Source of the DNA: a virus
Lineage: Duplodnaviria > Heunggongvirae > Uroviricota > Caudoviricetes
DNA length: 40,563 nucleotides
Strand: one strand, 5' to 3'
IMG/VR virus record: IMGVR_UViG_2778261280_000005
Location: 1-40,563 of that record
This document shows positions 1-37,998 of the stretch, one piece after another; position 1 is the stretch's first letter; every line of letters starts with the position of its first letter. The translations under genes and the position numbers were made by a program. Below the pieces are notes generated by a model. That model was not told where the DNA came from and did no database searches. It was given only the letters and a program-made list of their open reading frames with translations.

Positions 1-1248
1 ATGGCACTGAATATTCCATTCAGAAATGCGTACTATCGTTTTGCATCCAGTTACTCATTTCTCTTTTTTATTTCCTGGTCGCTGTGGTGGTCGTTATACG
101 CTATTTGGCTGAAAGGACATCTAGGGTTGACAGGGACGGAATTAGGTACACTTTATTCGGTCAACCAGTTTACCAGCATTCTATTTATGATGTTCTACGG
201 CATCGTTCAGGATAAACTCGGTCTGAAGAAACCGCTCATCTGGTGTATGAGTTTCATCCTGGTCTTGACCGGACCGTTTATGATTTACGTTTATGAACCG
301 TTACTGCAAAGCAATTTTTCTGTAGGTCTAATTCTGGGGGCGCTATTTTTTGGCTTGGGGTATCTGGCGGGATGCGGTTTGCTTGATAGCTTCACCGAAA
401 AAATGGCGCGAAATTTTCATTTCGAATATGGAACAGCGCGCGCCTGGGGATCTTTTGGCTATGCTATTGGCGCGTTCTTTGCCGGCATATTTTTTAGTAT
501 CAGTCCCCATATCAACTTCTGGTTGGTCTCGCTATTTGGCGCTGTATTTATGATGATCAACATGCGTTTTAAAGATAAGGATCACCAGTGCGTAGCGGCA
601 GATGCGGGAGGGGTAAAAAAAGAGGATTTTATCGCAGTTTTCAAGGATCGAAACTTCTGGGTTTTCGTCATATTTATTGTGGGGACGTGGTCTTTCTATA
701 ACATTTTTGATCAACAACTTTTTCCTGTCTTTTATGCAGGTTTATTCGAATCACACGATGTAGGAACGCGCCTGTATGGTTATCTCAACTCATTCCAGGT
801 GGTACTCGAAGCGCTGTGCATGGCGATTATTCCTTTCTTTGTGAATCGGGTAGGGCCAAAAAATGCATTACTTATCGGAGTTGTGATTATGGCGTTGCGT
901 ATCCTTTCCTGCGCGCTGTTCGTTAACCCCTGGATTATTTCATTAGTGAAGTTGTTACATGCCATTGAGGTTCCACTTTGTGTCATATCCGTCTTCAAAT
1001 ACAGCGTGGCAAACTTTGATAAGCGCCTGTCGTCGACGATCTTTCTGATTGGTTTTCAAATTGCCAGTTCGCTTGGGATTGTGCTGCTTTCAACGCCGAC
1101 TGGGATACTCTTTGACCACGCAGGCTACCAGACAGTTTTCTTCGCAATTTCGGGTATTGTCTGCCTGATGTTGCTATTTGGCATTTTCTTCTTGAGTAAA
1201 AAACGCGAGCAAATAGTTATGGAAACGCCTGTACCTTCAGCAATATAG
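1..1248 (+). CDS. cscB: Sucrose:H+ symporter, LacY-family MFS permease (host gene)
   Basis: 415-aa ORF with ATG at nt 1; strongly hydrophobic multi-TM protein; N-terminus MALNIPFRNAYYRF... matches my recollection of E. coli CscB; not database-verified. Confidence 0.75.
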   Translation: MALNIPFRNAYYRFASSYSFLFFISWSLWWSLYAIWLKGHLGLTGTELGTLYSVNQFTSILFMMFYGIVQDKLGLKKPLIWCMSFILVLTGPFMIYVYEPLLQSNFSVGLILGALFFGLGYLAGCGLLDSFTEKMARNFHFEYGTARAWGSFGYAIGAFFAGIFFSISPHINFWLVSLFGAVFMMINMRFKDKDHQCVAADAGGVKKEDFIAVFKDRNFWVFVIFIVGTWSFYNIFDQQLFPVFYAGLFESHDVGTRLYGYLNSFQVVLEALCMAIIPFFVNRVGPKNALLIGVVIMALRILSCALFVNPWIISLVKLLHAIEVPLCVISVFKYSVANFDKRLSSTIFLIGFQIASSLGIVLLSTPTGILFDHAGYQTVFFAISGIVCLMLLFGIFFLSKKREQIVMETPVPSAI

Positions 1249-1689
1249 ACGTAAACTTTTTCCGGTTGTTGTCGATAGCTCTATATCCCTCAACCGGAAA
1301 ATAATAATAGTAAAATGCTTAGCCCTGCTAATAATCGCCTAATCCAAACGCCTCATTCATGTTCTGGTACAGTCGCTCAAATGTACTTCAGATGCGCGGT
1401 TCGCTGATTTCCAGGACATTGTCGTCATTCAGTGACCTGTCCCGTGTATCACGGTCCTGCGAATTCATCAAGGAATGCATTGCGGAGTGAAGTATCGAGT
1501 CACGCCATATTTCGCTATCAGGATTCTGTGTGATGGTTACATCGCCCGGCCCAGGGCTGTTTAGTCATCAGCGCTTTCTGACAGTGCTGAGATTTCAACC
1601 TGTTGCAGTAAAAATGAGTAGATATAAGGCAAGTGTGCTGCCAAACCCATCTTTTACGGGGTGAAGGTAGATTTCGTTTGAAGGGTATC

Positions 1690-1704
1690 TGGTGTCCCCT
1701 GCAG
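1690..1704 (-). other. Putative att core: 15 bp identical to 3' end of tRNA-Arg (argW) including CCA
   Basis: tggtgtcccctgcag is the reverse complement of CTGCAGGGGACACCA, the argW 3' end as I recall it; sits at the host/phage transition between cscB flank and xis. Confidence 0.5.
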
Positions 1705-1777
1705 ACATCTACTTGGCGCGGCAGGGGATTGATTGGAATGGTATTTTTTAGATGTGAAAAATATTTTACCCGCTATT

Positions 1778-1978
1778 TTACCCATTCGCGCGGCTTAAGA
1801 GCTTATTTTTGAATTCACAATGGTCACGATATAACCATCTTGCTCGACCGTGGATAACTTTGGCTTTTGGCAGGTCGCCGGACTTAATCCGGTCGTAGAT
1901 GAAGGTTTTACCAAAGCCAGTATCGGCCATGATGAATTTCAAATCAACCAGTGAATCAGGCTGTAGTTCGTGTTGCAT
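1778..1978 (-). CDS. AlpA-family excisionase / HTH DNA-binding protein
   Basis: 66-aa ORF, ATG at 1978 with GGAG RBS; small basic HTH protein with ...GRARWLYRD... pattern typical of AlpA/Xis; first gene inside the att junction. Confidence 0.6.
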   Translation of the reverse strand: MQHELQPDSLVDLKFIMADTGFGKTFIYDRIKSGDLPKAKVIHGRARWLYRDHCEFKNKLLSRANG

Positions 1979-2022
1979 GAGTGCTATCTCCGAATAGGGA
2001 ATCGAACCTGCAAATCAGGCAA

Positions 2023-2043
2023 TAAAAAACCGCATTGATGCGG
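2023..2043 (-). terminator. Rho-independent terminator (minus strand)
   Basis: Hairpin ccgcattgatgcgg (2030-2043) preceded on + strand by aaaaaa (T-run on minus), downstream of the 114-aa gene. Confidence 0.5.
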
Positions 2044-2102
2044 CGATGGTAGGCCTTGATATCTTGAGAAATGAACAGGCCTCATCGAGTGTGAGGCTGT
2101 AG

Positions 2103-2504: not shown

Positions 2505-3305
2505 TTAAGCGGCGTCGGTGAATTCAAATAAAAAACCGGCTTGCGCCGGCTCTCTCATCTTTCTGTCTACCCATGCTGATATCGATGGCGGGTGCACCTT
2601 TTCAATAGCAGCGCGAAGTACAGCTGTACGTGCCAGTTTGTCGGTAATCTCAGGAAATCGCTTCTCTGTCTTCGGTACGTTAACAGCAACATTAGTAGAA
2701 TCCGCACTGGCGAACGGATACATACCAAGAACTCTCACGTCGAGCATTCGAAGACCATGAATTTTCACTTTCAAATTACGATTGATATAAAGCTCAGTGA
2801 AAACTTCATCCATTCTCTGTTCCCACCATTTAGAGCGTATGTGCCTGTGTGGTCCGCAGCATCCAATCGCCACCCATTCAAATTTGCCAGAAAGGCGTAA
2901 AAGACGTTCAATTGATTCGTCGGTATGCCAGACCGGAACCGCTTTTGATTTTAGCCAATCAGGAACCAACTCAATCTGCTTGTCGTTTTCTGCCTCTGTC
3001 CCTTCGATAACGTCAGGTATAAGAAACCATTCAATTCTGCTGAACCACTTCCCAACAAAGTCGTAGAATTTTGCTCGTCTCTTACTCCAGTCTACCGGAG
3101 TGCCTTTCTTTAATGCTTTCATCCAGTCGCTAAAAGCGCCGTTATCAAGGCGTATATCACAAGGGAACATGGCAATCTTTTTCATCTGCTCTGGTCTGGC
3201 AAATGAAACAAAAGCCCCACCATCACGGTAAAGGGCTTTAATCAGCATATCTGTAGGGGCATGCTCATCCCCCCATATTGGGCTGCCGTGAAAGTGGATG
3301 GTCAT
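2505..3305 (-). CDS. Hypothetical protein (266 aa), function unknown
   Basis: Long ORF with ATG at 3305; flanked by hairpins on both sides; no motif I can assign with confidence. Confidence 0.7.
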   Translation of the reverse strand: MTIHFHGSPIWGDEHAPTDMLIKALYRDGGAFVSFARPEQMKKIAMFPCDIRLDNGAFSDWMKALKKGTPVDWSKRRAKFYDFVGKWFSRIEWFLIPDVIEGTEAENDKQIELVPDWLKSKAVPVWHTDESIERLLRLSGKFEWVAIGCCGPHRHIRSKWWEQRMDEVFTELYINRNLKVKIHGLRMLDVRVLGMYPFASADSTNVAVNVPKTEKRFPEITDKLARTAVLRAAIEKVHPPSISAWVDRKMREPAQAGFLFEFTDAA

Positions 3306-18412: not shown

Positions 18413-18487
18413 GGGTCAGTCGTATAAAGGTCATTACGGAAGGCTGTTAACCTTCTTATCGTGGTTCGAGTCCACGCTGTCCCGCCA
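18413..18487 (+). tRNA. tRNA-Asn-like (anticodon GUU), phage-encoded
   Basis: Manual fold: acceptor GGGTCAG/CTGTCCC (one T-T mismatch), D-loop with GG, anticodon arm GAAGG-CTGTTAA-CCTTC, T-arm CGTGG-TTCGAGT-CCACG, 3' GCCA; the imperfect acceptor stem lowers confidence. Confidence 0.55.
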
Positions 18488-18492
18488 AACAT

Positions 18493-18568
18493 GCTGGTTT
18501 AGCTCCAATGGTAGAGCAGTCGCCTTGTAAGCGAATGGGTAGCGGTTCAAGTCCGTTAACCAGCACCA
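18493..18568 (+). tRNA. tRNA-Thr (anticodon UGU), phage-encoded
   Basis: Manual fold: perfect 7-bp acceptor GCTGGTT/AACCAGC, D-arm GCTC-CAATGGTA-GAGC, anticodon loop CTTGTAA, T-arm AGCGG-TTCAAGT-CCGTT, discriminator A plus CCA; 76 nt. Confidence 0.75.
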
Positions 18569-20891: not shown

Positions 20892-21349
20892 CCATTCCAA
20901 AGCCCATCTACGGGTGGGCTTGATAATGAAACCGTGATTTACATCCCCACAATCCGGGTATGTAAAAGATAGTTCAGGCGAGAACAGATTTAACTAAATC
21001 TGTGCACCACCAGTTACGGCAGTACCACGAAACAACCCAAGCCAGTAAGTGGGGAAATAACACTGGCAGCCACTGAAAGATGAACCTCCTGCCTTATGGC
21101 AAAAAAGATTCTTTGTGGTGGCGGACTGATGGAAAGACATCCTAATTCCAGCCAAACATTGAAGGAGTTGTTATGTCAGCAGAAGGTTTCAATAACCCAT
21201 CAAAATTCCGGGATGAGTGGGATAGCAGCGTAAAGAGTAAGTGATGCCATCACAAAAGCCATTCCCTACAGAGTGGTCTCGACAATGGCTTATACCCTAC
21301 ACGGGATAACTTAACTGATATCCCTTTTAACGGATAAACGGAGCCAACA

Positions 21350-21592
21350 ATGGCAGAGATTATTCCCATGACTGAAGAACAGAAATTCCAGTTAGAGATT
21401 TACAAACTGGTCATGAACCAGAACGCAGCTGCAGAGGAAGCATTTCAGTTCATTGGCACTGACGAACTGAAGCTTGAGCCATTCAAAATTCACTTCCAGT
21501 CAGGCGGCGCTAATTCGGATATCACGACCCGCACTATCGAAGCGGTGCGTAAATCGAAGGAAGCGTTAGACCTGTTCACTACCGGAGCATGA
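21350..21592 (+). CDS. Hypothetical protein (80 aa) upstream of small terminase
   Basis: ATG 21350; same position and size as a small P22 ORF ahead of gene 3 (recollection). Confidence 0.5.
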   Translation: MAEIIPMTEEQKFQLEIYKLVMNQNAAAEEAFQFIGTDELKLEPFKIHFQSGGANSDITTRTIEAVRKSKEALDLFTTGA

Positions 21593-21627
21593 TGCTCAAC
21601 CTGAAATAACAACTAAGTGAGATAAAT

Positions 21628-22116
21628 ATGGCAGCACCAAAGGGCAACCGATTTTGGGAGGCCCGCAGTAGTCATGGGCGAAATCCTAAATTCGAATCGC
21701 CTGAGGCGCTGTGGGCTGCTTGTTGTGAATACTTCGAGTGGGTAGAAGCTAACCCGCTATGGGAGATGAAGGCGTTCTCGTATCAGGGTGAAGTGATACA
21801 AGAGCCTATCGCCAAGATGCGAGCGATGACTATTACAGGCCTCACTCTGTTCATTGATGTGACGCTTGAAACATGGCGCACATATCGCCTGCGAGAAGAT
21901 TTATCTGAAGTCGTTACGCGAGCAGAGCAGGTCATCTACGACCAGAAATTCTCTGGCGCAGCCGCTGACCTTCTCAACGCTAACATCATCGCCCGTGATT
22001 TGGGCCTCAAAGAGCAGTCGCAAGTTGAAGACGTGACACCTGATAAGGGAGATCGCGATAAGCGGCGCTCTCGTATCAAGGAGCTATTCAACCGTGGAAC
22101 TGGACGCGATTCTTGA
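21628..22116 (+). CDS. Terminase small subunit (P22 gp3-type)
   Basis: 162 aa, [43 protein letters not shown]... matches P22 gp3 as recalled; contains the pac-like sequence. Confidence 0.9.
21895..21922 (+). other. Putative pac site for headful packaging (inside small terminase gene)
   Basis: GAAGATTTATCTGAAGTCGTTACGCGAG resembles the P22 pac sequence as I recall it; exact reference sequence not verifiable here. Confidence 0.45.
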
Positions 22117-23593
22117 TAACCTGAGCGACGAAGAGCAAATCGAATTGCTCGAACTACTCGAAGAAGAAGAGAACTACCGGAACACACACCTGCTATATGA
22201 ATTTACGCCATACAGCAAACAGCGTGAGTTCATCGACGCCGGGCATGACTATCCAGAGCGCTGTTTTATGGCTGGTAACCAGCTTGGTAAGTCATTTACT
22301 GGTGCTGCTGAAGTCGCGTTTCACCTTACCGGGCGTTATCCTGGCACAAAAGGCTATCCTGCTGATGGTAAATATGGTGGGGAGTGGAAAGGTAAGCGTT
22401 TCTATGAGCCTGTTGTCTTCTGGATTGGCGGCGAGACAAACGAGACTGTAACCAAAACGACTCAACGCATCCTGTGCGGTCGTATCGAAGAGAATGATGA
22501 GCCAGGCTACGGTTCCATACCTAAAGAAGACATCATTAGCTGGAAGAAGTCTCCTTTCTTTCCGAACCTTGTTGATCATCTTCTGGTTAAGCATCACACA
22601 GCTGATGGCGTTGAAGATGGCATTTCAATCTGCTACTTCAAACCATACTCGCAAGGCCGTGCTCGCTGGCAGGGTGACACAATCCACGGCGTGTGGTTTG
22701 ACGAAGAGCCACCATACAGCATTTATGGCGAAGGGCTTACCCGTACCAACAAATACGGGCAATTCTCAATTCTGACGTTTACCCCGCTGATGGGGATGTC
22801 TGACGTTGTTACCAAGTTCCTGAAGAATCCCAGCAAGTCGCAGAAAGTGGTCAACATGACCATCTATGACGCTGAGCACTACACAGACGAACAGAAAGAG
22901 CAAATCATCGCATCCTATCCCGAGCATGAGAGAGAGGCGCGTGCTCGCGGTATTCCTACGATGGGTAGCGGGCGAATCTTCCAGATACCGGAAGAGACGA
23001 TTAAGTGTCAGCCGTTCGAGTGTCCTGATCACTTCTACGTAATTGGCGGGATGGATTTCGGATGGGATCACCCGCAGGCGCAGGTTCAGCTTTGGTGGGA
23101 TAAGGACGCAGACACAATCTACGTTTCACGCGTGTGGAAGGCGAAAGAAAAAACAGCTGTTCAGGCATGGGGAGCTGTTAAATCATGGGCGCATAAAGTG
23201 CCAACCGCATGGCCTCATGACGGAAACCAGCATGAGAAGGGCGGCGGTGAGCAGCTCAAAGGGCAGTATGCAGACGCTGGATTTATGATGTTACATGAGC
23301 ATGCGACATGGCCTGATGGCGGTAATGCTGTTGAGCCTGGCATCACTGAATTGCGCGACATGATGCTCGATGGTCGCTTCAAAGTATTCAACACCTGTGA
23401 ACCATTCTTTGAGGAATTCCGCCTCTATCACCGTGATGAAAACGGGAAGATAGTCAAGCTTAACGACGACGTGCTATCAGCCGTTCGCTATGCATACATG
23501 ATGCGCCGCTTCGCCAAAATGATGCGCGACATCAAAAAACCAAAAGAGAAAAAGATACCAGCCCCAATCAGGCCCATCGCACGGAGAACTTAA
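22094..23593 (+). CDS. Terminase large subunit (P22 gp2-type)
   Basis: 499 aa (GTG start overlapping gp3 end); [37 protein letters not shown]...; same length as P22 gp2. Confidence 0.9.
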
Positions 23594-25759
23594 ATGGCCG
23601 ACGAAAACAGACTCAATTCCATTCTGTGTAAGTTTGACGCAGACTGGATGGCGAGCGATGAAGCCAGAACCGAGGCGACAAATGACCTGTATTTTAGCCG
23701 AGTGTCGCAATGGGATGACTGGCTATCAAACTACACGACCCTGCAATATCGCGGACAATTCGATGTTGTTCGCCCGGTGGTCAGGAAGCTGGTCGCAGAG
23801 ATGCGCCGTAACCCTATCGACGTTCTCTTCCGACCAAAAGACGGCGCTAATCCTGATGCTGCCGATGTGTTGATGGGAATGTATCGTACTGATATGCGCC
23901 ATAACACGGCAAAGATTGCCGTTAACGTTGGCGTTCGTGAGCAGATAGAGTCCGGCGTTGGTGCATGGCGTCTGGTCACCCAGTACGAAGACAACGACCC
24001 AACAAGCAACAATCAGGTAATCCGACGCCTGCCAATCCATGAAGCCTGCTCACACGTCATATGGGACGCCAACAGCAAGCAGATGGATAAGAGCGACGCT
24101 AAGCACTGCACGGTGATTAACGCTTTGTCACGCAATGGATGGAAAGAGTTCGCAGAGGATTACGGTATTGATCCTGACACCCTGCCATCTTTCCAGAATC
24201 CGAACGATACATGGCTGTTTCCGTGGGTATCGAATGATGTCGTCTACGTCGCTGAGTATTACGAGGTCGAAGAGAAGAAAGAGAAGGTCTTCATCTACCG
24301 CGACCCGCTGACAGGTGAGCCGGTCAGCTATTACCAGCAGGATATCAAAGACGTTATCGACGACCTTGCTAATCGTGGATTCATTAAGGTAGCAGAGCGC
24401 AAGGTGAAGCGTCGGCGTGTGTATAAGTCGATCATCACCTGCACGCAGATACTGAAAGACCGCGAGAAGATAGCTGGAGAGCATATCCCAATCGTTCCAG
24501 TGTATGGCGAATGGTCATTCGCTGGTGACAAGGAGTGCTACGAAGGAGTGGTAAGGCTGACGAAAGACGGTCAACGCCTTCGTAACATGATCATGTCGTT
24601 CAACGCCGATATTGTTGCTCGTTCACCGAAGAAGAAACCGACCTTCTTCCCTGAGCAAATCGAAGGCTACGAATACATGTACGGTGGAAATGATGACTAT
24701 CCGTACTATCTGCAGAACAGGACCGATGAAAACGGTAACGACCTGCCGATTGGTCCAATCTCCTACATGGAAAACCCTGAAGTGCCGCAAGCCAACGCTT
24801 ACATGCTTGAGGCTGCCACCAACGCAGTGAAAGAGGTGGCTAGTCTTGGCGTGGATGCGCAGGCGGCAAACTCTCAGGTCGCTTTCGATACCGTCAATCA
24901 ACTGAACATGCGGGCAGACCTTGAGACATACGTGTTTCAGGATAACCTGGCTACCGCAATGCGACGTGATGGCGAGATTTATGCCTCAATGGTCAACGAT
25001 ATTTATGACGTTCCTCGCCATGTAACGCTGACTCTTGAAGACGGAAGCGAGAAAGACGTTCAACTCTACGCGCAAGTTGTAGATTACCAGTCCGGCAATG
25101 TGGTCACACTCAACGACATTCGCGGTCGCTATGAGTGCTATACAGACGTTGGACCATCCTTCCAGAGTATGAAGGAACAGAACCGCGCAGAGATTCAGGA
25201 GTTACTCACCAAGGTTCCGCAAGGTACTCCAGAGTTCCAGATGCTGATGCTGCAATACTTCACGCTGCTTGACGGTAAAGGCGTTGAGATGATGCGAGAG
25301 TACGCGAACAAGCAACTGGTGATGATGGGGCTGAAGAAACCAGAAACACCTGAAGAGATGGAGATGGTACAGCAGGCACAACAACAGCCGCAGCAGCCAT
25401 CAGCAGAGCAAATTCAGGCGCAGGGTATCCTTCTGCAAGGTCAGGCTGAATTGCTCAAGGCAGAGAACCAACAGGCGCAGATTCAGGTTGAAGCTGCCAA
25501 GGTTGAAGCCCAAAACCAACTCAACGCCGCGAAGATTGCAGAAATCTTCAACAATATGGACCTCGACAAGCAGGCAGAACTGCGTGAGTACCTCAAGCTC
25601 GTAGGTCAATTCCAGCAACAGCGCAGCAAAGATGCTCGTGCTAACGCTGAGCTGCTTCTTAAAGATGCAGACCAGACTCATTCACAACGCATGGATTTCG
25701 CGAATCTTATGCGTCAAGTTCAAATCCCCTCCGGCGGAGTAGCCGAGACACCTCAATAA
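23594..25759 (+). CDS. Portal protein (P22 gp1-type)
   Basis: 721 aa; strong similarity to P22 portal as recalled, including the Q-rich C-terminal barrel region. Confidence 0.9.
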
Positions 25760-25772
25760 GAGAGAGTTAATC

Positions 25773-26684
25773 ATGGAACAAACCACCGACATTCAGGCTT
25801 CTGAAGAATTAACCCTGCCCGGCAATCATGCAGCGGCATCTGCTGATGGCTTAGTTGTCGATAATGCCAACGACAACGCAGGTCAGGAAGAAGGCTTCGA
25901 GATTGTCCTGAAAGACGATGAGAAACCAAAACAAGACCCGGCAACTAATGCTGAATTTGCCCGTCGCCGCATCGAACGCAAACGCCAGCGTGAGCTTGAG
26001 CAGCAGATGGAAGCGGTTAAGCGAGGGGAGTTGCCGGAACACCTGCGGGTGAACCCTGAGTTACCAAAACAACCAGACCCTAACGATTATCTTTCCGAAG
26101 ATGCACTGGCTAAGTACGACTATGACCAGAGCCGCGCACTGGCTGCCTTCCAGCAGGCAAACAGTGAATGGCAGATCAAGGCTATGGACGCACGAAGCCA
26201 GGCTGTCGCCGAGCAGGGTCGCAAAACTCAGGAGTTCACCCAGCAATCAGCGCAATACGTCGAGGCAGCCCGTAAGCACTACGACGCAGCGGAAAAGCTC
26301 AATATCCCTGACTATCAGGAGAAAGAGGATGCATTCATGCAACTGGTGCCGCCAGCAGTCGGTGCCGACATCATGCGCCTCTTCCCGGAGAAATCCGCTG
26401 CTCTCATGTATCACCTTGGTGCTAATCCTGAGAAAACACGCCAGTTGCTGGCGATGGACGGGCAATCCGCGCTGATTGAACTCACTCGACTGTCAGAACG
26501 TTTAACTCTCAAGCCTCGAGCCAAACCTGTTTCAGAAGCCCCGCTACCTGATGAACCCATTCAGGGACACGCTGTTGCTGCAAATATATCTGCGATTGAA
26601 AAGCAGATGGAAGCGGCAGCAAACAAAGGGGATGTAGAGACATACCGCAAGCTCAAGGCGCAACTGAATAAAGGAATTCGATAA
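25773..26684 (+). CDS. Scaffolding protein (P22 gp8-type)
   Basis: 303 aa, acidic helical protein between portal and coat; same size as P22 gp8. Confidence 0.85.
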
Positions 26685-27979
26685 TGGCATTAAATGAAGG
26701 TCAACTGGTCACGTATGCTCTGGATGAAATCATCGAAACCGTCCAGAACCTGACGCCAATGGCGTCCAAAGTGACAAAATACACCCCTCCGGCAGAATCC
26801 ATGCAGCGTTCAAGCAACACCGTGTGGATGCCTGTTGAGCAGGAAGCGCCAACCCAGACTGGCTGGGATTTAACTGGCAACGCAACCGGGATTCTGGAAC
26901 TCTCCGTGAAATGCAACATGGGCGATCCGGATAACGATTTCTTCGAGCTTCGTGCAGATGACCTGCGTGATGAGCGTTCTTACCGTCGCCGCATCCAGGC
27001 ATCCGCCAAAAAACTGGCGAATAACATTGAGTCAGCAATTGCCAAACAGGCAACTGAAATGGGCTCGCTTGTTGTTCACGATACCCGCGCAATTGGTTCA
27101 TCTACTGGCCTGTCTGGCTGGGATTTTGTGTCTGATGCAGAGCGCCTGATGTTCTCCCGTGAGCTAAACCGCGATATGGGCATCAGTTACTTCCTGAACC
27201 CTGACGATTACCGCAAAGCAGGCCGCAACCTGGTAGATGGTGATATCTTCGGTCGCGTTCCTGAAGAAGCGTATCGCAACGGTACTATTCAGCGTCAGAT
27301 TGCTGGCTTTGATGAAATTCTTCGCTCACCGAAACTTCCGGCAGTTACCAAGTCAACCGCTACTGGTGTAACTGTTTCTGGTGCGCAGAAGTTTAAGCCG
27401 CAGGCATACACTCTTGATACCGATGGTAACAAAGAGAACGTCGACAACCGTGTTGCAACGGTGACCGTATCCTCCACCACCGGGTTTAAGCGCGGCGACA
27501 AAATCAGCTTCACTGGTGTGAAATTCCTGTCTCAGATGGCGAAGAACGTGCTGACTGATGATGCTACTTTCTCAATCACCCGTGTGATCGATGGTACTCA
27601 CATCGAAATCACGCCGAAGCCGATTGCACTGGATGACGCGTCACTGACAAAAGAAGAGAAGGCTTACGCTAACGTAAACACCTCTCTTGCTGATACCACT
27701 CCGGTAAACGTTCTGAACGTGGCAACAACCACCGCTAACGTGTTCTGGGCTGATGACTCAATCCGCCTGCTGTCTCAGCCGATCCCGGTAACCCATGAAC
27801 TGTTTGCTGGCATGAAAACGTCTTCCTTCAGCATTCCTGGTATTGGTGTTAACGGCATCTTCGCAACGCAGGGTGATATAAATACTCTGTCTGGTAAGTG
27901 CCGTATTGCTGTGTGGTATTCAGCATGTGCTGTACGACCAGAGGCAATTGGTGTTGGTCTGCCTAACCAGACTGCGTGA
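26684..27979 (+). CDS. Major capsid (coat) protein (P22 gp5-type)
   Basis: 431 aa; [19 protein letters not shown]... and many segments match P22 coat as recalled (divergent, not identical). Confidence 0.9.
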
Positions 27980-27986
27980 TAACCAG

Positions 27987-28009
27987 AGGGAGCTTCGGCT
28001 CCCTTTTTA
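27987..28009 (+). terminator. Rho-independent terminator after coat gene
   Basis: GGGAGC-TTCG-GCTCCC (UUCG tetraloop) followed by TTTTT, 8 nt after the coat stop. Confidence 0.65.
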
Positions 28010-28022
28010 TCTGGAGACAAGC

Positions 28023-28271
28023 ATGACACACATGATCTTTCGTCATGGCGACATGAAGAAATGGAAAGGCGTTGGATACGACTTTGAAATCGTGAAAGCC
28101 GAAGAGCTTCAGGAATATCTGGATGCTGGCTGGTTTGCACATCCCGATGACCTTCTGAAGGATGTTGCAGAGCCAGAGCCAGAGCCAGAGCCAGAGCCAG
28201 AAGAAAAACAGCGTAAAAAGCCTGGTCGAAAACCTAAGGCGGCAGCAGATGAACCTGACAACGAAGGGTGA
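28023..28271 (+). CDS. Small acidic/basic protein with (Glu-Pro)5 repeat (82 aa)
   Basis: ATG 28023 with GGAGA RBS directly after the coat terminator; contains (GAGCCA)5 at 28170-28199 encoding [10 protein letters not shown], then a K/R-rich tail. Confidence 0.5.
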
Positions 28272-28749
28272 TTTAGTTCTTGCGGCATTACGTAAGCTCG
28301 GTGTGGCATCAAATGCCACGTTAACCGATGTCGAACCGCAGTCTATGGAAGACGGCGTCAACGACCTTGAAATGATGATGGCTGAATGGCTTGGCGGTGA
28401 TGCGTCACCTGGTATCAACGTTGGCTACATTTTTGCTGATGCAGATGTTGCTCCGGATCCGGGCGATGAGCACGGTTTATCAAATAACGCTATCAATGCC
28501 GTCATTTTCAACCTTGCCTGCCGAATTGCTCCAGATTATGCGCTGGAAGCGTCTGCAAAACTTATAACCACTGCCAGATACGGGAAAGAGCGACTCGTCA
28601 AACTGTCTGCAATGGACAGAGCAAAAGCCGCTAAATGTAAGTCCGGTTATCCAAACCGTATGCCTGTTGGTAGTGGTAACCAGTTGGCGAAGTGGAACGG
28701 TTGGAATTACTTCCACCGAAAGGAACCTTGCGATAACGGGAGCGAATAA
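28249..28749 (+). CDS. Head-completion / tail-accessory protein (P22 gp4-type)
   Basis: 166 aa from ATG 28249, the same length as P22 gp4; the track's upstream extension reads through the hexanucleotide repeat. Confidence 0.75.
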
Positions 28750-30168
28750 ATGCCGATTCAGCAACTTCCGCTTATGAAAGGTGTCGGCAAAGACTTTCGA
28801 AACGCTGACTATATCGACTATCTGCCAGTGAATATGTTGGCTACACCAAAAGAAATCCTTAACAGCAGCGGATATCTTCGCTCATTCCCGGGCATTGCCA
28901 AACATTCTGATGTGAACGGCGTATCGCGCGGCGTCGAGTACAACATGGCGCAGAGTGCTGTTTATCGCGTGTGTGGTGGCAAGCTGTATAAGGGCGAAAG
29001 TGAAGTCGGTGATGTTGCCGGAAGTGGTCGTGTATCAATGGCGCATGGTCGGACATCTCAGGCTGTAGGCGTTAATGGTCAACTGGTCGAGTATCGCTAT
29101 GATGGCACGGTTAAAACCGTCTCAAACTGGCCTACAGACAGCGGATTCACGCAGTATGAGTTAGGCTCAGTCCGCGACATTACACGCTTACGTGGGCGTT
29201 ATGCGTGGTCAAAAGACGGCACTGATTCATGGTTTATCACTGACCTTGAAGACGAATCGCATCCTGACCGTTACAGCGCACAATATCGCGCAGAATCGCA
29301 GCCGGACGGCATCATCGGCATCGGCACATGGCGAGACTTCATAGTCTGCTTTGGTTCGTCGACGATTGAATATTTCTCCCTGACTGGTGCAACCACTGTT
29401 GGGGCTGCTCTGTATGTCGCACAGCCATCGCTGATGGTGCAGAAAGGCATTGCCGGGACTTACTGCAAAACGCCATTCGCTGATTCTTATGCGTTCATCA
29501 GCAATCCGGCAACAGGTGCGCCGTCTGTATATATCATCGTCTCCGGTCAGGTATCACCAATCGCCAGCGCGAGCATTGAGAAAATACTACGCTCCTACAC
29601 TGCTGATGAACTGGCTGATGGCGTGATGGAATCGTTGCGGTTTGATGCTCATGAGTTGCTGATTATTCACCTGCCGCGCCATGTTCTTGTTTACGACGCA
29701 TCTTCAAGCGCCAATGGTCCGCAATGGTGTGTGCTGAAAACAGGACTGTATGACGATGTGTACCGAGCTATCGACTTCATTTACGAAGGCAATCAGATAA
29801 CGTGCGGCGATAAACTGGAGTCCGTGACCGGGAAATTGCAATTCGACATCAGCAGCCAGTACGACAAGCAACAGGAACATCTGCTGTTTACTCCTCTGTT
29901 CAAAGCGGATAACGCCAGAGTGTTCGACCTTGAGGTGGAATCATCCACTGGCGTAGCTCAGTACGCCGACCGCCTGTTCCTCTCTGCAACCACTGACGGC
30001 ATCAATTACGGGCGTGAGCAGATGATTGAGCAGAATGAACCGTTCGTTTATGACAAACGTGTTTTGTGGAAGCGAGTCGGGCGCATCAGGAAAAATGTCG
30101 GCTTCAAATTGCGCGTTATCACGAAGTCACCTGTCACTCTGTCTGGCTGCCAGATAAGGATCGAGTAA
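28750..30168 (+). CDS. Tail accessory protein (P22 gp10-type)
   Basis: 472 aa, same size and position as P22 gp10. Confidence 0.85.
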
Positions 30169-31016
30169 TGGCGGATTCGAATCTCAATGTGCCGGTAATC
30201 ATTCAGGCTACACGGCTCGACACATCAGTCCTTCCACGCAATATCTTCTCGCAGTCGTATCTGCTTTACGTTATCGCACAGGGCACTGATGTTGGTAACG
30301 TGGCTAACAAGGCCAACGAGGCTGGACAGGGCGCTTATGATGCACAGGTCAGGAACGATGAGCAGGATGTGATTCTCGCTGACCATGAGCAGCGAATTTC
30401 TGCTGCGGAAGCAACGCTTGTTAATCATGAGGAGCGAATCAGCCAGGCAGAATCAACTCTTCAGGAACATGAAACGCGAATCGCTCAGAATGAAAGCGAT
30501 ATTGCGTCGCTTGATACCAGAGTTCAGTCGCTGGAATCGCAGGTTTCAGACCATGAAACGCGCATTGATGCTCTGGAGTATGCCACTACTCGCAAGAAGT
30601 CAGAGGTTGTTTACTCTGGCGTATCTGTAACCATCCCGACAGCGCCGACCAACCTTGTTAGCCTGCTGAAAACGCTCACGCCGTCATCCGGCACGTTGGC
30701 ACCATTCTTCGACACCGTTAACAACAAGATGGTTGTGTTCAACGAGAACAAAACCTTGTTCTTCAAGCTGTCTATTGTCGGGACGTGGCCCAGCGGAACC
30801 ACCAACAGGTCAATGCAGCTAACATTTTCCGGCTCTGTTCCTGACACGTTGGTCAGCAGTCGTAATGCGGCGACAACAACCGACAACATCCTGTTAGCTA
30901 CGTTCTTCAGCGTGGATAAAGACGGCTTTCTTGCCACAAATGGCAGCACGTTAACCATTCAGTCGAATGGTGCGGCGTTTACTGCCACAACCATCAAGAT
31001 AATCGCGGAGCAGTGA
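30168..31016 (+). CDS. Tail needle (P22 gp26-type) with extended C-terminal domain
   Basis: 282 aa from ATG 30168 (overlaps gp10 stop); N-terminus [25 protein letters not shown]... and heptad repeats match gp26; C-terminal ~110 aa differ from P22 (Sf6-like knob by recollection). Confidence 0.85.
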
Positions 31017-31471
31017 TGATTCAGTTCAAACCAACGCGAAACATCGACCTGATCGAAGCAGTCGGAAATCACCCTGACATTATTGCCGGAAGCAACAACG
31101 GTGATGGATACGACTACAAGCCTGAATGCCGTTACTTTGAGGTTAACGTGTACGGTCAGTTTGGCGGCATTGTTTACTATCAGGAGATTCAGCCGCTGAC
31201 ATTCGATTGCCACGCCATGTACCTGCCAGAGGTTCGTGGATTCAGCAAGGAAATCGGGCTGGCGTTCTGGCGATACATTCTGACTAACACCACCGTTCAG
31301 TGCGTCACATCGTTCGCCGCACGCAAATTCCGCCACGGGCAGATTTACTGCGCAATGATTGGCCTTAAGCGTGTCGGAACCATCAAGAAATACTTTAAAG
31401 GCGTGGATGACGTGACTTTTTACAGCGCCACACGCGAAGAACTAATCGACTTCCTGAATCACGGGAGATAG
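31016..31471 (+). CDS. P22 gp14-type protein
   Basis: About 151 aa from ATG 31016 overlapping the gp26 stop; positional and recollected similarity. Confidence 0.7.
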   Translation: MIQFKPTRNIDLIEAVGNHPDIIAGSNNGDGYDYKPECRYFEVNVYGQFGGIVYYQEIQPLTFDCHAMYLPEVRGFSKEIGLAFWRYILTNTTVQCVTSFAARKFRHGQIYCAMIGLKRVGTIKKYFKGVDDVTFYSATREELIDFLNHGR

Positions 31472-31473
31472 CC

Positions 31474-32166
31474 ATGTTATATGCATTTAAGCTGGGCAGA
31501 AAACTGCGCGGCGAGGAACCTTATTGCCCTGAAAAAGGCGGGAAAGGTGGCAGTTCTGATAAAAGCGCAAAGTATGCAGCAGAAGCTCAGAAGTATGCCG
31601 CAGACCTGCAAAATCAGCAGTGGCAGACGATCATGAAAAACCTTGCTCCGTTCACGCCTCTTGCGGAGCAGTATGTTAACCAGCTTCAGAACCTTTCCAG
31701 TCTAGAAGGTCAGGGGCAGGCACTTAATCAGTATTACAACTCTCAGCAGTATAAAGACCTTGCAGGTCAGGCTCGTTACCAGAGTCTTGCTGCTGCGGAG
31801 GCGACTGGCGGACTTGGTTCGACAGCCACAAGCAATCAACTGGCTACGATTGCTCCGACTCTCGGTCAGTCGTGGTTATCAAACCAGATGAGCAATTACA
31901 ACAATCTGGCAAACGTTGGGCTTGGTGCGCTGCAAGGTCAGGCAAACGCTGGGCAGACATACGCCAACAACATGAGCAGCATTGCACAGCAAAGTGCAGC
32001 ACTTGCCGCTGCTAATGCCAATAAACCATCAAGTCTTCAGACTGCAATTAGCGGTGGCACGTCTGGTGCGATTGCCGGTGCAGGTCTTGCCAGTCTTTTG
32101 GGAACATCAACGCCTTGGGGCGCTGGCATTGGTGCTGGTATCGGATTGCTTGGCTCGTTGTTTTAA
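31474..32166 (+). CDS. Ejection (E) protein, P22 gp7-type
   Basis: 230 aa, Q/A/G-rich, position after gp14. Confidence 0.8.
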   Translation: MLYAFKLGRKLRGEEPYCPEKGGKGGSSDKSAKYAAEAQKYAADLQNQQWQTIMKNLAPFTPLAEQYVNQLQNLSSLEGQGQALNQYYNSQQYKDLAGQARYQSLAAAEATGGLGSTATSNQLATIAPTLGQSWLSNQMSNYNNLANVGLGALQGQANAGQTYANNMSSIAQQSAALAAANANKPSSLQTAISGGTSGAIAGAGLASLLGTSTPWGAGIGAGIGLLGSLF

Positions 32167-32175
32167 GGGGTAATC

Positions 32176-33564
32176 ATGGCTACTTGGCAAGGAACAAACG
32201 GCGGATTGTTGGCTGGTATCGGCGGCGTCAACTCAAACGCTCCGAGCGTAAATGACATCGGCAATACGCTTCAGCTTATCAGGCAGAACAATGATATTGA
32301 GCGTTCAGGCGCTAACAATGTTGGGCTGACTGCTTTGCAAGGCCTTTCAGGTATTGCGGGGGTGTTTCAGCAGGAAAAGCAGGCTCAGCGGCAGAAAGAA
32401 TTTCAGCAGGCATACGCTAATGCTTATGCGTCTGGTGATCGCGGTGCTTTGCGTCAGTTGGCTACTCAATATCCAGACCAGATTGAATCCGTTCGTAAAG
32501 GCATGGGATTCATTGATGAAGAGCAGCGTAATTCTATCGGCACCTTAGCGGCTGGCGCACGCCTTGCGGCCTCGTCTCCAGAAGCAATGCAATCATGGCT
32601 GCAAAACAACGCCAAGGAACTGACTCGCGTCGGTGTTGACCCTAATAACGTTGCTCAGATGTATCAGCAGAATCCTTCAGGATTTGGTGAGTTTGTTGAT
32701 CACCTTGGAATGGCCGCGCTTGGTCCGATTGATTACTTCAATGTTCAGGACAAGATGGCTGGTCGTGAGATTGATCGCGGAAAACTTGCAGAGACAATCC
32801 GCAGCAATCAGGCTGGCGAGGCGCTAACAGCACGAGGCCAGAACATCACGATGCGCGGTCAGGACTTATCTGCTTCTACTGCGCGACGAGGTCAGGATTT
32901 GGCAATGCAGCGAGCGTCAACAAGAGGAATCGCTGGGAATGATGAGCGTACAGTTCAGTTATCAGATGGCAGAACTGTAACGGTAGGCGGGAAGCTTCAT
33001 GGCGCTGGGGCTAATGCGTTCTACGAAGGTATCGACAACGAGGGGAATATGGTTCGCGTTCCTGCCAGTTCAATCGCAGCGCCTGCAACATCGTCTGCAT
33101 CAGCACAAAACTATGCCATGAAGAAGGATATCGACGCGATCGCAAATGCAGACGCTTCTGCTCTCGATTTCATGACAGGAATGACCGGCGGCGCAGGTAA
33201 CCCGGCAATTGGTGCTGATGTTCGCAGCCGATTAACAGGAAAAGAGCAGCGCCAGTTATATAACTCAGCACAACGCATTCAGGGCAGAATGCAGAATCAG
33301 GGTGTGGCGGCAGCAAGGGACATGGGGGCCAGTGGTATTAACACCGTTGCAGAAGCGAAGATGTATTTTCAGGGGATGCCGCAGGTTGACTATTCAAGCC
33401 CGGAGGCTATGCAGCAGTCGATTCGTGAAATTCAGGAATACACCAACAATTACAACCAACAATATAACGTTAATGTTGGTAAATCTCAGCGGAAGCAATC
33501 TCAACCTGCACAGGTATCACAGCCAGCAGCCAGCAGTAACTTTTCTTCACTATGGGGTGATTAA
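32176..33564 (+). CDS. Ejection protein, P22 gp20-type
   Basis: 462 aa, position and composition. Confidence 0.8.
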
Positions 33565-35561
33565 TGGCTAAAGCATGGAAAGATGTTATCGCCTCTCCAC
33601 AGTATCAGGCGTTAGCACCAGAACAAAAAGCGCAGGCTCAGGAGCAATACTTCAATGAAGTCGTGGCCCCGCAAGCCGGAGAAAATGCAGAGCAGGCTAA
33701 GCAAGCTTTCTATGCTGCCTATCCATTGCCATCTGTGCAGCCAGTGGAGACACAACAACCATTAGCACAGCAACAACCACAGCAAAGTGGATTTATGTCT
33801 GATCTTGGCGAAGCAGTAAGAGAGACTGGTCGCGGACTGGTGCAGGCTGGCGTGAACGTGGCAAACATACCTGCATCAGTTGCCGATGCTGTAACAAGTG
33901 CGGCGGCATGGGCCGGCGGTAAACTCGGTATTGGCGATGGAACATACCAACCAGCGCCACGAGTAACAACGCAGGGATTGGAGCAGGACTTTGGCCTTCA
34001 GCAAGGTGCGCTGACTCCACAAACGACAGAGGGAAGGGTATTTGCTGAAGCATTGCCTTACCTCACTCCTGCTGGCGTTGAGAGAGCGGCAGCACAGGCA
34101 CCAACACTTGCTGGTCGAATTGCTCAGGGGGCAACTCGCCTTCTCGCTGAAAACGCAGTTGGATCACTTGCTGCAAATAGTGCGAAAGATGATGCGGAAG
34201 CACTCGCCACCGATTTAGGCGTTGGTGTACTTGCTGGCGGTGCTATTAACGCTGCTGGACGTGGATTAGGTGCTGCTTATCGTGGCGTTCGTGGTGCTAT
34301 CACGCCAGAAGCGCAGCAGGCTATCAGATTTGCAGAGCGTGAAGGAGTTCCTCTGCACACCACAGACCTGTTACAACCCACTTCCCGCGTCGGAAAAATG
34401 GCGCAGACTACAGCAGAAAATATCCCTCTGGCTGGCACAAGCGGAATGAGAGCAACGCAACAGGAAGCGAGAAGCCAGTTGGTGCAGAGATTTGCCGATA
34501 AATTCGGTGAGTATGATCCAGCGGTTATTATTGACAGCCTTAAAGCGAAAACATCAGGAATTCGTCGTGCCGCCGGTAATCGACTGGAGCAGGTTCAGAA
34601 TGCTATGGCGGGAGTCAATATCCAGCCTGCGCGAGCAATTCAGCAGATTGATACTGAGATATCTAATCTGCAGAAGCTTGGTAAGGTAGCTGATAACGAG
34701 ACAATTTCAAAACTTCAGTCATATCGTGATGAGCTTGTTCGCAATGCTGGCCCTGATGGTCCGGTAAATCTGGATTTGAAGCAATTAAGCGACCTGCGCA
34801 GCCAGTTCAGAATGGACGTGAAGGGTGAGCGACCAGTGTTACCAAACCGTTCAGATGCTGCCATTCAGCGCGTTTACAAGGCAATGACTGACGATATCAA
34901 TGGTGCCATTGGTCAGAATCTTGGCAACGATACTCTCCGTAAATATCAGCAGGCCAATGCCGTCTATGCTGACGAAGCTGCGAAACTAAAGAATACCAGG
35001 CTGAAGAATGTTCTCATGAAAGGCGATCTGACGCCGGAAGTTGTCAACAACATGCTATTCAGCAAGAACAAATCGGAAATTAAGACTCTGTATAACTCAG
35101 TTGGTCGTGTTGGCAGGGCGCAAATGCGCAATGGCATCATTGGAAAGGCGATGGAGAAATCAGGTGGTTCCCCTGACCAGTTCCTTCGGCAGCTTAACAT
35201 CCTGCAAAACCAGACTGGCATCACATTTAAAGGTCAGGAAGCCGCTTATCTGAAAGGATTGAAAAACTACCTGCAATCCACGCAGCAGGCTGCAAAAGCG
35301 GCAGTAACAACACCAACAGGGCAGCAAACCATCCCGTTCATTATCGGGTATGGGACGGCAATGAACCCGGCGACAACTGGCGCAGCGGTAAGCTACGGAC
35401 TTCTTACTCGCGCCTATGAGAGCGAGCCATTCAGAAATGCAATGCTCCGAATGGCAAACACCCCACGCGGATCAACAGCGTTTGAGAAAGCCATGCAGCA
35501 GGCGCAAAAGGCCATTAACGCCCTGACTCAAGGTGCCAAGTCTGATGCGTTGTCAGAATAG
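33564..35561 (+). CDS. Ejection protein, P22 gp16-type
   Basis: 665 aa, position and composition. Confidence 0.8.
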   Translation: MAKAWKDVIASPQYQALAPEQKAQAQEQYFNEVVAPQAGENAEQAKQAFYAAYPLPSVQPVETQQPLAQQQPQQSGFMSDLGEAVRETGRGLVQAGVNVANIPASVADAVTSAAAWAGGKLGIGDGTYQPAPRVTTQGLEQDFGLQQGALTPQTTEGRVFAEALPYLTPAGVERAAAQAPTLAGRIAQGATRLLAENAVGSLAANSAKDDAEALATDLGVGVLAGGAINAAGRGLGAAYRGVRGAITPEAQQAIRFAEREGVPLHTTDLLQPTSRVGKMAQTTAENIPLAGTSGMRATQQEARSQLVQRFADKFGEYDPAVIIDSLKAKTSGIRRAAGNRLEQVQNAMAGVNIQPARAIQQIDTEISNLQKLGKVADNETISKLQSYRDELVRNAGPDGPVNLDLKQLSDLRSQFRMDVKGERPVLPNRSDAAIQRVYKAMTDDINGAIGQNLGNDTLRKYQQANAVYADEAAKLKNTRLKNVLMKGDLTPEVVNNMLFSKNKSEIKTLYNSVGRVGRAQMRNGIIGKAMEKSGGSPDQFLRQLNILQNQTGITFKGQEAAYLKGLKNYLQSTQQAAKAAVTTPTGQQTIPFIIGYGTAMNPATTGAAVSYGLLTRAYESEPFRNAMLRMANTPRGSTAFEKAMQQAQKAINALTQGAKSDALSE

Positions 35562-35630
35562 CTTCGCAAACACCAGGAACGTGCAAAAACCAAATATGTA
35601 GAACGCAATATTCAGCATGTCTCTTTGCAT
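35553..35630 (-). CDS. Small hydrophobic peptide (25 aa) downstream of mnt
   Basis: MQRDMLNIAFYIFGFCTFLVFAKLF; ATG 35630 seven nt after GGAGGA; 3' end overlaps the gp16 stop region; speculative. Confidence 0.25.
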   Translation of the reverse strand: MQRDMLNIAFYIFGFCTFLVFAKLF

Positions 35631-35650
35631 AAATCCTCCGTAACTGATAG

Positions 35651-35944
35651 TTAGCTGCTGTCTTTTTTATATAGCTCTTTGAGCGTATCAAAGACAATTT
35701 TCTTAACCATATCAGATTGTTGTTCTGCCATACGCTCTGCATCGTCAATGTAAACTGATGCAGAGCTTTGTTTAGCCAATGATTCTTCAATCGCTGCAAT
35801 TATCTCTGAGTTCAGAGACCTGTTATTCATCTTCGCACGCTGTTTAATTTTCGCGTGGAGTTCATGCGGAAGTCTCAAGTGAAACTGCGCCTCGTCGTAT
35901 TTGCTGTACATCCTTGATGCCTCACCAGTTGGGTGGAATGGCAT
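35651..35944 (-). CDS. mnt: Mnt-like ribbon-helix-helix repressor
   Basis: C-terminal ...DAERMAEQQSDMVKKIVFDTLKELYKK matches P22 Mnt ...DAERLADEQSELVKKMVFDTLKDLYKK (recollection); start may be ATG 35944 or 35911. Confidence 0.7.
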   Translation of the reverse strand: MPFHPTGEASRMYSKYDEAQFHLRLPHELHAKIKQRAKMNNRSLNSEIIAAIEESLAKQSSASVYIDDAERMAEQQSDMVKKIVFDTLKELYKKDSS

Positions 35945-36032
35945 CGTAACCTACTGGATAAATACTCAATAGTACCATTTCGGTATGCAATCACATCATG
36001 GTTGCATCATATCATTCGTCTGGAGCAATGAA

Positions 36033-37961
36033 ATGTCAGATATCACCGCAAATGTTGTGGTAAGCATGCCTTCGCAACTCTTCACTATGGCTCGTTCTTT
36101 TAAAGCCGTAGCCAATGGCAAAATTTATATCGGTAAAATTGACACGGACCCTGTAAATCCTGAAAACCAGATTCAGGTTTATGTGGAGAACGAAGACGGT
36201 TCTCACGTTCCTGTTGCACAGCCAATCATCATTAACTCTGCTGGATATCCTGTATATAACGGACAGATTGCCAAATTCGTAACTGTGCAAGGCCATTCTA
36301 TGGCTGTGTACGATGCGTACGGTGCGCAGCAGTTTTATTTTCCAAATGTGCTGAAGTATGACCCTGATCAGTTACGGAATGATTTATCCAGCGGATCAAA
36401 TAATCTCGGTGACAACCTTGTTGCTGTAAAGCAGCCATTCCCTCTGGTGATGCAAAGAACGCAACATGATTTCAACGCAGATTATATAAATGTCAAGGAT
36501 TGGGGTGCAAAAGGGGACGGTGTAACAGATGACACCAATGCCATCGACGCCGCGTGTGCAGCATTAACAGGAACTAGTTTAGTCACTAACTTCCGTAGAC
36601 TGTACTTACCGCATGGTACATATATCTACAATGGGGCGGGTATCACTCTGCCGAGTGGGACCACTATTTGCGGGGAAGATTTATTCACAATAATCGACGC
36701 CTCGAATAATGCCAACTCAGGATATTTAGTAACCCTGGTAGGATTTGGAGCGCGACTAGAAACACTACGCTTAAAAGGGAATGCAAGTAATGCTAACCTT
36801 AAGGGGATTTCTAGCGCGTATAACTCGGATAATGGCGGTGTTGTAGACGCAATACTTGAAGACTTCCACTACGGTATGGATATTGATAAATGTTGGTACT
36901 CTGTGTACCAAAATATCCGTTTCCGTCGTAGTGGCTCATCTGTGGTGCTAACAGGATCACATATCCGAATTGGCTACAATCAGCCAACAAAGGAAGTCAA
37001 CAACGTTAACTTCTCAAATATATGGATGACAGGGCAGCAAGCACATTCAGTGACCGTACATTGCAAAACTCAAACTCTTACATGGAATGAGTGCTCGTTC
37101 GAAACTAAAGGTCAGTCACGCATATACTTTGCTACTGCAGAATCAGTAAACACGTTTACCCTCAACTCTTGTTATATCGAGGGGGATGTAGAATCCTCGT
37201 CTTACCCATATTTGGTAGAGGGGCAGACTGTAAATCAGGTAATAACCTGTAACGATTGCATGTTCCGTTTAGGAAACACAGCTAGCTCACTTGGTAAGAA
37301 CATCACTATCAATTTAAACGGCGGTTGGTCCAATAGCCCTGACGTATCTTTACAGTCTAATAATACCAAAGTTTGGATGACTAACTATCTTTACTTAGGC
37401 GCATTCTCTGACGCCCCTAATTACAGTCAGTCTGGCGATTACGACGGCTCAGCTATGCACAGTGCTTCGGTGATGATGTCTCCAAGACCAATGGATATAA
37501 GGGATTGGAATTCAGTGATACCTCATTACGTAAATTACAAGACACACCAATCGACCTCACCAGTTGATATATTCAAGATTTACATTCCAACCGGATCAAA
37601 TCCGAGACAAATGCTTCTAAATATAAAAGCATTAACAAAAAGCACAAGTGAAACATATATTCAGGGAGTTGAGGAATATATGTTAGCGATAACATTGCCA
37701 GAAACTTCAACTCCAGGAACTGGGACATACGTAGCAAAATTACACTCTTCATCAAAAGATAACGCAACATTGCTTTCTGATATGGCGTTTAGTATCACAT
37801 CAAATGGTTATGACAGCACAACTGATGCTTACGAATACACTATTTCTCATAGCGTTTCTAATAGCACCAGGCTTGGAACTACTACATATGTTATGAATGG
37901 AGTATTCACGTTAAATGGTTTATCTACAACAACACCTAAATGGAGAATTCGTCGATTGTAA
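36033..37961 (+). CDS. Tailspike: P22-type head-binding N-domain plus divergent beta-helix receptor-binding domain
   Basis: 642 aa from ATG 36033 (GGAG RBS); N-terminus [68 protein letters not shown]... matches the P22/Sf6 tailspike head-binding domain; remainder unlike P22, with a pectate-lyase-like motif [19 protein letters not shown]. Confidence 0.85.
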
Positions 37962-37998
37962 AAAGACTTTCGCCCTCTTAAGAGGGCGAAAGTCTTTT
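37961..37998. terminator. Bidirectional rho-independent terminator between convergent tailspike and acetylase genes
   Basis: Perfect 17-bp inverted repeat aaaagactttcgccctc / gagggcgaaagtctttt with 4-nt loop, with A-run and T-run on the two arms. Confidence 0.75.

Follow-up and report, generated by a model that had tools for sequence, protein, structure and literature searches.

A copy of the argW T-loop in the excisionase gene leader of a P22-like prophage beside the Escherichia coli sucrose locus

The closest described counterparts of the locus analysed here are the prophage KplE1 (CPS-53) of E. coli K-12 and the phages HK620 and Sf6, which have in common a recombination module directed at the tRNA gene argW, with a duplicated core of 16 nt (PMC2951348, PMC3509656, PMC8787464); the core has been published as the 16-mer CTGCAGGGGACACCAT. 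Excision that depends on both TorI, the recombination directionality factor (RDF), and the integrase IntS has been demonstrated for KplE1 (PMC2951348, PMC3509656), and in argW phages with the gene order xis–attP–int the xis and int genes end up at opposite ends of the prophage (PMC8787464). IntS arm-type sites have a TAAA core, whereas TorI sites have a GTTCG, GATCG or GTCCG core and lie on attL; TorI represses PintS, and PtorI is uncharacterised (PMC2951348). It has been argued in print that excision is controlled through the expression of torI.

The module resembles the Int/Xis system of phage lambda in its tyrosine integrase with separate arm-type and core-type binding, in an RDF that directs excision and in the identical core found in attL and attR (PMC2951348). 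It differs from lambda in that the RDF and int genes flank attP instead of lying side by side, the RDF sites, located on the int-proximal arm, overlap the promoter of int, the integrase is subject to autoregulation and the target is the 3′ end of a tRNA gene.

Here we compare with these systems a prophage that borders the sucrose-utilisation (csc) genes of an E. coli host, in a window (the whole stretch of DNA that was analysed) of 40,563 nt. The features of the window on which the comparison turns are these:

1–1248, plus strand: host cscB-type sucrose permease of the LacY family, the last csc gene (Pfam LacY_symp, E = 1e-193)
1249–1689, no strand assigned: host cscB–argW spacer, the B′ side of attB (100% identity to empty-site genomes)
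1690–1704, minus strand: att core CTGCAGGGGACACCA of attR, which is the original argW 3′ end after its displacement and corresponds to K-12 pawZ (exact match and alignment)
1705–1777, minus strand: P arm of attR (identical to the left arm of Sf6 attP)
1778–1978, minus strand: torI, recombination directionality factor (excisionase) of 66 aa (66/66 identical to K-12 TorI)
1984–1995, minus strand: Shine-Dalgarno region of torI, ATTCGGAGATAG (sequence coordinates)
1998–2013, minus strand: the 16-mer, part of the torI leader, whose core in TorI lineages is CAGGTTCGATTCC (1998–2010), with GTTCG at 2003–2007
2019–2044, minus strand: intrinsic terminator (stem 2044–2029 plus T-run) that closes the upstream operon and directly precedes the T-loop copy (sequence scan)
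39406–40563, minus strand: intS, the final gene of the window, for a tyrosine integrase with an arm-binding domain (384/385 identical to K-12 IntS)

The attachment core and the host junction

The sequence CTGCAGGGGACACCA, which reads tggtgtcccctgcag on the plus strand and occurs once in the window, equals nt 61–75 of argW in the annotation of E. coli K-12 (tRNA at L003:810–884), the final 15 nt of the gene, in agreement with the initial annotation of this DNA. Allowing even two mismatches, 0.03 matches to CTGCAGGGGACACCA are expected in the window, and for any 15-mer of argW the expectation of an exact match is 0.0046. In an exhaustive comparison of both strands, the longest exact argW matches in the window measure 16 nt and 15 nt and are followed by 11-mers.

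That the 15-mer marks an att core, as had been proposed, is borne out by the breakpoints of a four-way alignment. Homology to the phages Sf6, Kapi1 and HK633 stops exactly at 1690, homology to the host stops at 1704, and the attR of the window is composed of the left arm of Sf6 attP, the core and the right flank of attB from an empty site. The initial annotation had further placed the prophage against the sucrose locus and suggested aligning the csc flank with csc-positive genomes; this alignment puts the prophage in direct contact with the cscB–argW spacer, with positions 1200–1704 being 100% identical to csc-positive genomes with an empty site, where argW follows directly. The empty site of strain 120899 reads cscB–441 bp–argW–yfdC, and in many other csc-positive genomes the transporter and a tRNA-Arg lie together under the match. 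The counterpart of 1–1248 in the matching genomes is annotated as an oligosaccharide MFS transporter or cscB. A search of complete E. coli genomes with an 852-bp query, made up of the csc flank and the torI region, found 372 genomes with one place covering at least 80% of the query.

In prophage-free csc-positive genomes, an intact argW occupies the position held by the core in the window, between the cscB spacer and yfdC. Occurrence of the 15-mer in prophage-free csc flanks had been named as a finding that would speak against an att core; the 15-mer is found there, yet the test was ill-posed because at such a flank it is the 3′ end of an intact argW, that is, attB itself. In strain G3, which has a junction 99.1% identical to this one, yfdC–argW–intS lie approximately 41 kb away and the 15-mer forms a direct repeat. 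This repeat is seen only in near-identical genomes, attL and argW of the present prophage lying outside the window. The flanking base after CCA is G in the window, so that the identity of the repeat extends over 15 nt and not 16. The K-12 annotation lists the same 15-mer as the pseudogene pawZ at the end of CPS-53. Judged by sequence, the 15-mer is the core of attR in an IntS–TorI recombination module of the KplE1/HK620/Sf6 type and, since the torI-side junction is attR by the convention of the field, the earlier label of ‘left junction’ was wrong. The att junction itself belongs to a known system, with the K-12 KplE1/pawZ arrangement, and there is nothing new in it.

Two observations concern other events at argW. 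In the cscB–argW spacer, at around 1391–1480 on the minus strand, lies a fragment annotated in strain N385 as a DUF4942 pseudogene, which is probably the remnant of an older element once integrated at argW. Separately, at some attR junctions (L009, from Escherichia sp. E1V33, L012 and L019, as well as L245, L266, L296 and L305) the argW match ends after CTGCAGGGGACA or earlier and another flank follows, which suggests secondary-site integration or later rearrangement in those cases.

The recombination genes and the prophage

On the phage side, a degenerate T-loop-like C site, CAAGTAGATGT, adjoins the core at about 1705–1715. The P arm also contains a pair of IntS arm-type repeats, GGGTAAAA, at 1764–1771 and 1776–1783, which have the TAAA core; the second of them overlaps the stop codon of torI. 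A conserved CCCCTGC is found at 1721–1727 on the minus strand. This element (CAATCCCCTGC) is kept in the P arm of every lineage and in the second RDF family described below, and it is an inverted repeat of GCAGGGG in the core, about 18 nt apart.

The gene at 1778–1978 is annotated as torI in RefSeq matches and falls in PHROG 66 (excisionase). It is thus a TorI-family RDF gene at the end of the prophage away from int and reads toward the core. An IntS-type integrase gene lies at the opposite end and is transcribed away from argW; its product is 99.7% identical to the K-12 protein and has the Pfam domains Arm-DNA-bind_3, Phage_int_M and Phage_integrase (arm-binding, central and catalytic, respectively). 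The window stops at the ATG of int, 40563 being its last base. Because argW lies 161–162 bp upstream of intS in the same orientation in K-12, T28R and G3, the P′ arm and an intact argW are expected just past 40563, the tRNA gene about 160 bp beyond the window end. The int-proximal arm of the module holds five TorI sites (GTTCG/GATCG/GTCCG) and PintS, and these sites are present in K-12, Sf6 and two Erwinia phages; the Hafnia locus has an integrase gene downstream of xis without a canonical P′ arm.

The best overall explanation, in which as a whole we have high confidence, is a complete P22-like prophage (Lederbergvirus) of approximately 39 kb, integrated at the 3′ end of argW. It encodes a P22-type tailspike head-binding domain (Pfam Head_binding, E = 8e-67) along with a collinear module of portal, terminase, coat and ejection-protein genes. 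The backbone is a P22-like mosaic with IME10, Sf6 and Huey as the nearest phages. IME10, the nearest overall, covers 48% of the prophage in its first half and 75% in its second, the latter figure being the part of 21000–40563 that matches IME10, at 95.8% identity. In the proposed course of integration, IntS recombined the 15–16-nt core of attP, CTGCAGGGGACACCA, with its identical counterpart at the 3′ end of argW; just past the int end of the window, argW is now completed by the core copy from the phage, and the original 3′ end was displaced by about 39 kb to 1690–1704, beside the cscB–argW spacer. Excision would need TorI, the gene of which reads toward the core.

The nearest known arrangement, the attR/pawZ/torI end of KplE1, has the 15-nt core, TorI (66/66), IntS (384/385), the GGGTAAAA arm repeats and a 16-mer located 19 nt before the torI ATG in common with the window. 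KplE1 is, however, a 10-kb remnant and not a full-length phage of about 39 kb, its host flank is dsdC rather than the csc spacer, and its repeat is 16 nt rather than the 15 nt that result here from the G after CCA. In the case of Sf6, the P arm, core, torI and leader of the window match at about 96% as far as the final base of the core. By contrast with the window, Sf6, HK620 and Kapi1 are free phage genomes, with mosaic early and late regions that are unlike those seen here.

Several other genes of the prophage were seen along the way. An Acyl_transf_3 protein encoded at 37997–38995 (minus strand), between the tailspike gene (35985–37961) and int, has the position of the Sf6 O-antigen acetylase and is likely to be serotype-converting. 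Genes for tRNA-Asn(GTT) at 18413–18487 and tRNA-Thr(TGT) at 18493–18568, both on the plus strand, are 5 nt apart. Two genes from torI, a 266-aa open reading frame at 2505–3305 (minus strand) matches PHROG 887, ‘queuine tRNA-ribosyltransferase’ (E = 2.5e-102), and no Pfam family at 1e-3; we take its product to be DpdA/Tgt-like and presume it to be a candidate 7-deazaguanine DNA-modification (anti-restriction) moron.

A T-loop copy upstream of torI

The initial annotation had pointed to a second argW match, of 16 nt from the T-arm, at 1998–2013 on the minus strand, some 290 bp inside the phage by xis. The match is as described: TTGCAGGTTCGATTCC is identical to argW nt 46–61 and occurs once in the window, in which 0.0011 exact matches to any argW 16-mer are expected; it lies about 293 bp from the core; and the xis in question is torI, whose 66 codons stand between the two argW matches. 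In argW the 16-mer and the 15-mer share one base, and together they spell its last 30 nt.

The 16-mer of KplE1 mentioned above is the same sequence, and it is also identical in Sf6. More widely, at least ten enterobacterial lineages have retained the core GTTCGATT(C/T)CC, at a distance of about 28 nt upstream of the excisionase start. We aligned ten (E. coli, Enterobacter, Citrobacter, Serratia, two Pantoea, Edwardsiella, Hafnia, a MAG and Erwinia phage Midgardsormr38); since they share descent, the counts are not independent. All of them have GGTTCGATT(C/T)C without exception, in an alignment with an overall column identity of 48%, and eight of the ten have GTTCG at −28 or −29 from the ATG. 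The motif occurs twice in tandem in Midgardsormr38, and in Serratia the flanks on both sides are unlike those of the other lineages. The leader is ordered as terminator, GTTCGATTCCC, Shine-Dalgarno sequence and ATG, and among E. coli prophages the same torI leader is preceded by three different terminator hairpins. In the Shine-Dalgarno region, a relaxed second TorI-type pentamer, ATTCG, lies 12 bp downstream of GTTCG; at that place Enterobacter and P. stewartii have GTTCG, Edwardsiella has GTCCG and Hafnia GTACG.

Every relative that was found targets argW. The motif is absent from about 13 related lineages, including Klebsiella, Rahnella, Cronobacter, Dryocola and Erwinia phage 49, and is thus dispensable; within E. 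coli it is no less polymorphic than its neighbours. In a motif scan of IMG/VR, 49 of the 71 matches listed without a TorI-like gene after them lie in or beside tRNA genes (ARAGORN), and most of the others among the matches listed still show a complete T-arm. We found no mention of the motif in this context in the searchable literature.

Leader and attachment site recur in a second argW-specific RDF family, which the motif scan brought to light in IMG/VR prophages (L240–L319; for example L141:1380–1760, minus strand), whose RDF is 39% identical to TorI and whose leader core, GTTCGATTCCC...CGGAGAT...ATG, is as in TorI lineages. Like the module described here, this second one has the argW core, the CCCCTGC element, the T-loop-like C site and the GTTCGATTCCC...CGGAGAT leader. 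It differs in its arm repeats, GCGGGCATAA (GGGCATA) as opposed to GGGTAAAA, and in that the CAGG of the T-stem is often absent, which reduces the conserved unit to the T-loop plus CC(C).

The 16-mer forms neither the cloverleaf nor the complete T-arm hairpin of a tRNA gene or structured pseudogene. The 3′ strand of the T-stem is missing after it, ARAGORN finds only the phage tRNA-Asn and tRNA-Thr genes in the window, and Rfam gives no tRNA match in 1500–2300 even at E ≤ 10. A T-arm hairpin in RNA was rejected as well, the 3′ strand of the stem not being conserved across lineages and Rfam and ARAGORN finding nothing, as was a conserved upstream open reading frame, since the reading frames differ between E. 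coli and Edwardsiella. From its conservation across lineages, we conclude that the 16-mer is a conserved piece of the excisionase gene leader, not a chance match and probably not a decaying relic.

Readings of the leader motif

Both explanations offered by the initial annotation fare poorly against these data. Coincidental similarity to the generic T-loop consensus might be entertained because GGTTCGAWTCC is common in many tRNAs, and with three mismatches 0.49 matches are expected; but an exact 16/16 match, at an expectation of 0.0011, located 300 bp away from the att core that belongs to the matched tRNA and recurring in many genera, makes chance exceedingly improbable, and we consider this reading refuted. 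The other explanation, a relic of an earlier att site or tRNA fragment, can be put as an ancestral attP that had the last ~30 nt of argW as one block and was split by insertion of torI and the P arm, leaving a non-functional remnant. Such a history would fit the adjacency of the two pieces in argW, where they share 1 nt, and a distant relative, L111 (RDF 51% identical), does have a contiguous CCCAGGTTCGATTCCTGTAGGGGACACCA block after its xis. However, a degenerate T-loop is already present to the left of the core at the homologous position in every lineage—GAGTTCGATGTa in Serratia, TTAGATGT in Klebsiella and the second RDF family, CAAGTAGATGT in E. coli—so the upstream motif is a second copy, not the missing half, and we rejected the splitting of an ancestral tRNA block by torI. 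Further, flanks that can no longer be aligned surround a motif that is unchanged from E. coli to Hafnia and Edwardsiella, which is not what a neutral remnant would show. With the motif constant between diverging flanks and a T-loop homologue already beside the core, a relic is unlikely.

Two more readings can point to entries in the Sf6 record. By homology to HK620, that record (AF547987) carries the entry ‘pI; possible integrase expression promoter’ over tgcctgatttgcaggttcgattccctat, and a promoter driving xis and int from this place would suit the uncharacterised state of PtorI. A scan of 1600–2500 nevertheless gave no sigma-70-like site, the −35-like TTGCCT is kept only in E. coli, Citrobacter and Enterobacter lineages, in contrast to GTTCGATTCC, which is kept beyond them, and transcription starting past the proposed −10 would hardly leave room for a leader ahead of the Shine-Dalgarno sequence. 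The consensus spacing of cII boxes is N6, which TTGC-N5-TTGC does not fit; inspected by eye, cII/C1 box and sigma-54 patterns were both rejected for wrong spacing (TTGC-N5-TTGC; no GG-N10-GC). We give the promoter a low probability. Sf6 also has a boundary sequence, bsq2, annotated here, in keeping with the idea that the motif is microhomology at which phages swap the recombination module, kept by the joining and without function. The homology of lambdoid and P22 phages does end just upstream of the motif, the same leader is found behind different terminators and upstream genes, and it is joined to two unrelated-looking RDF genes. Yet neither the start of the shared block in E. coli, which is in the T-run of the terminator, nor the join to the second RDF family, which is at the ATG, coincides with the motif, and 11–13 bp is very short for homologous exchange. 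A mosaic boundary, too, appears quite improbable.

What the motif probably represents, on the comparative evidence, is a regulatory element of the excisionase gene. The form of regulation that we prefer, tentatively, is a DNA site for the module’s own proteins: a GTTCG-type operator for TorI, or an IntS core-type half-site copying the argW T-loop. Besides containing GGTTCGA, the motif exactly reproduces the T-loop side of attB, a sequence that IntS has to recognise, and TTCGAT may, to judge by the T-loop-like C sites, be part of the core recognition by IntS. A hairpin in the mRNA, with UUCC pairing to GGAG of the Shine-Dalgarno sequence, is possible but doubtful; both estimates are shares of the probability given to a regulatory leader. 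The hairpin, with an outer GGUU:AACC stem around UUCC:GGAG, would occlude the Shine-Dalgarno sequence. The two pairings can form in 89% of alignment cells and RNAalifold proposes the inner stem; the helix has 0 compensatory changes, its consensus energy is a negligible −0.69 kcal/mol and the z-scores are not significant.

Against a DNA site it counts that all TorI sites described to date lie on attL. In vitro recombination also proceeds with a 135-bp attR that does not contain the motif, which shows that excision chemistry can do without it. In K-12 attL (L003:860–980), the GTTCG of the argW T-loop is 30 bp from TorI site I1, which is itself 20 bp from I2, spacings that put the argW GTTCG, I1 and I2 on one face of the helix, so that a contact of TorI with the tRNA gene in attL is conceivable as well.

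A short element that is shared across genera, that equals the T-loop of the target tRNA and that sits 28 nt before the torI start is an obvious candidate for the control of torI. Somewhat more speculatively than the DNA site as such, the argW T-loop copy may be a control element of excision, an operator mimicking an attB half-site or a TorI site, through which IntS and/or TorI would set the level of the excisionase, and which argW phages would have kept across two RDF families.
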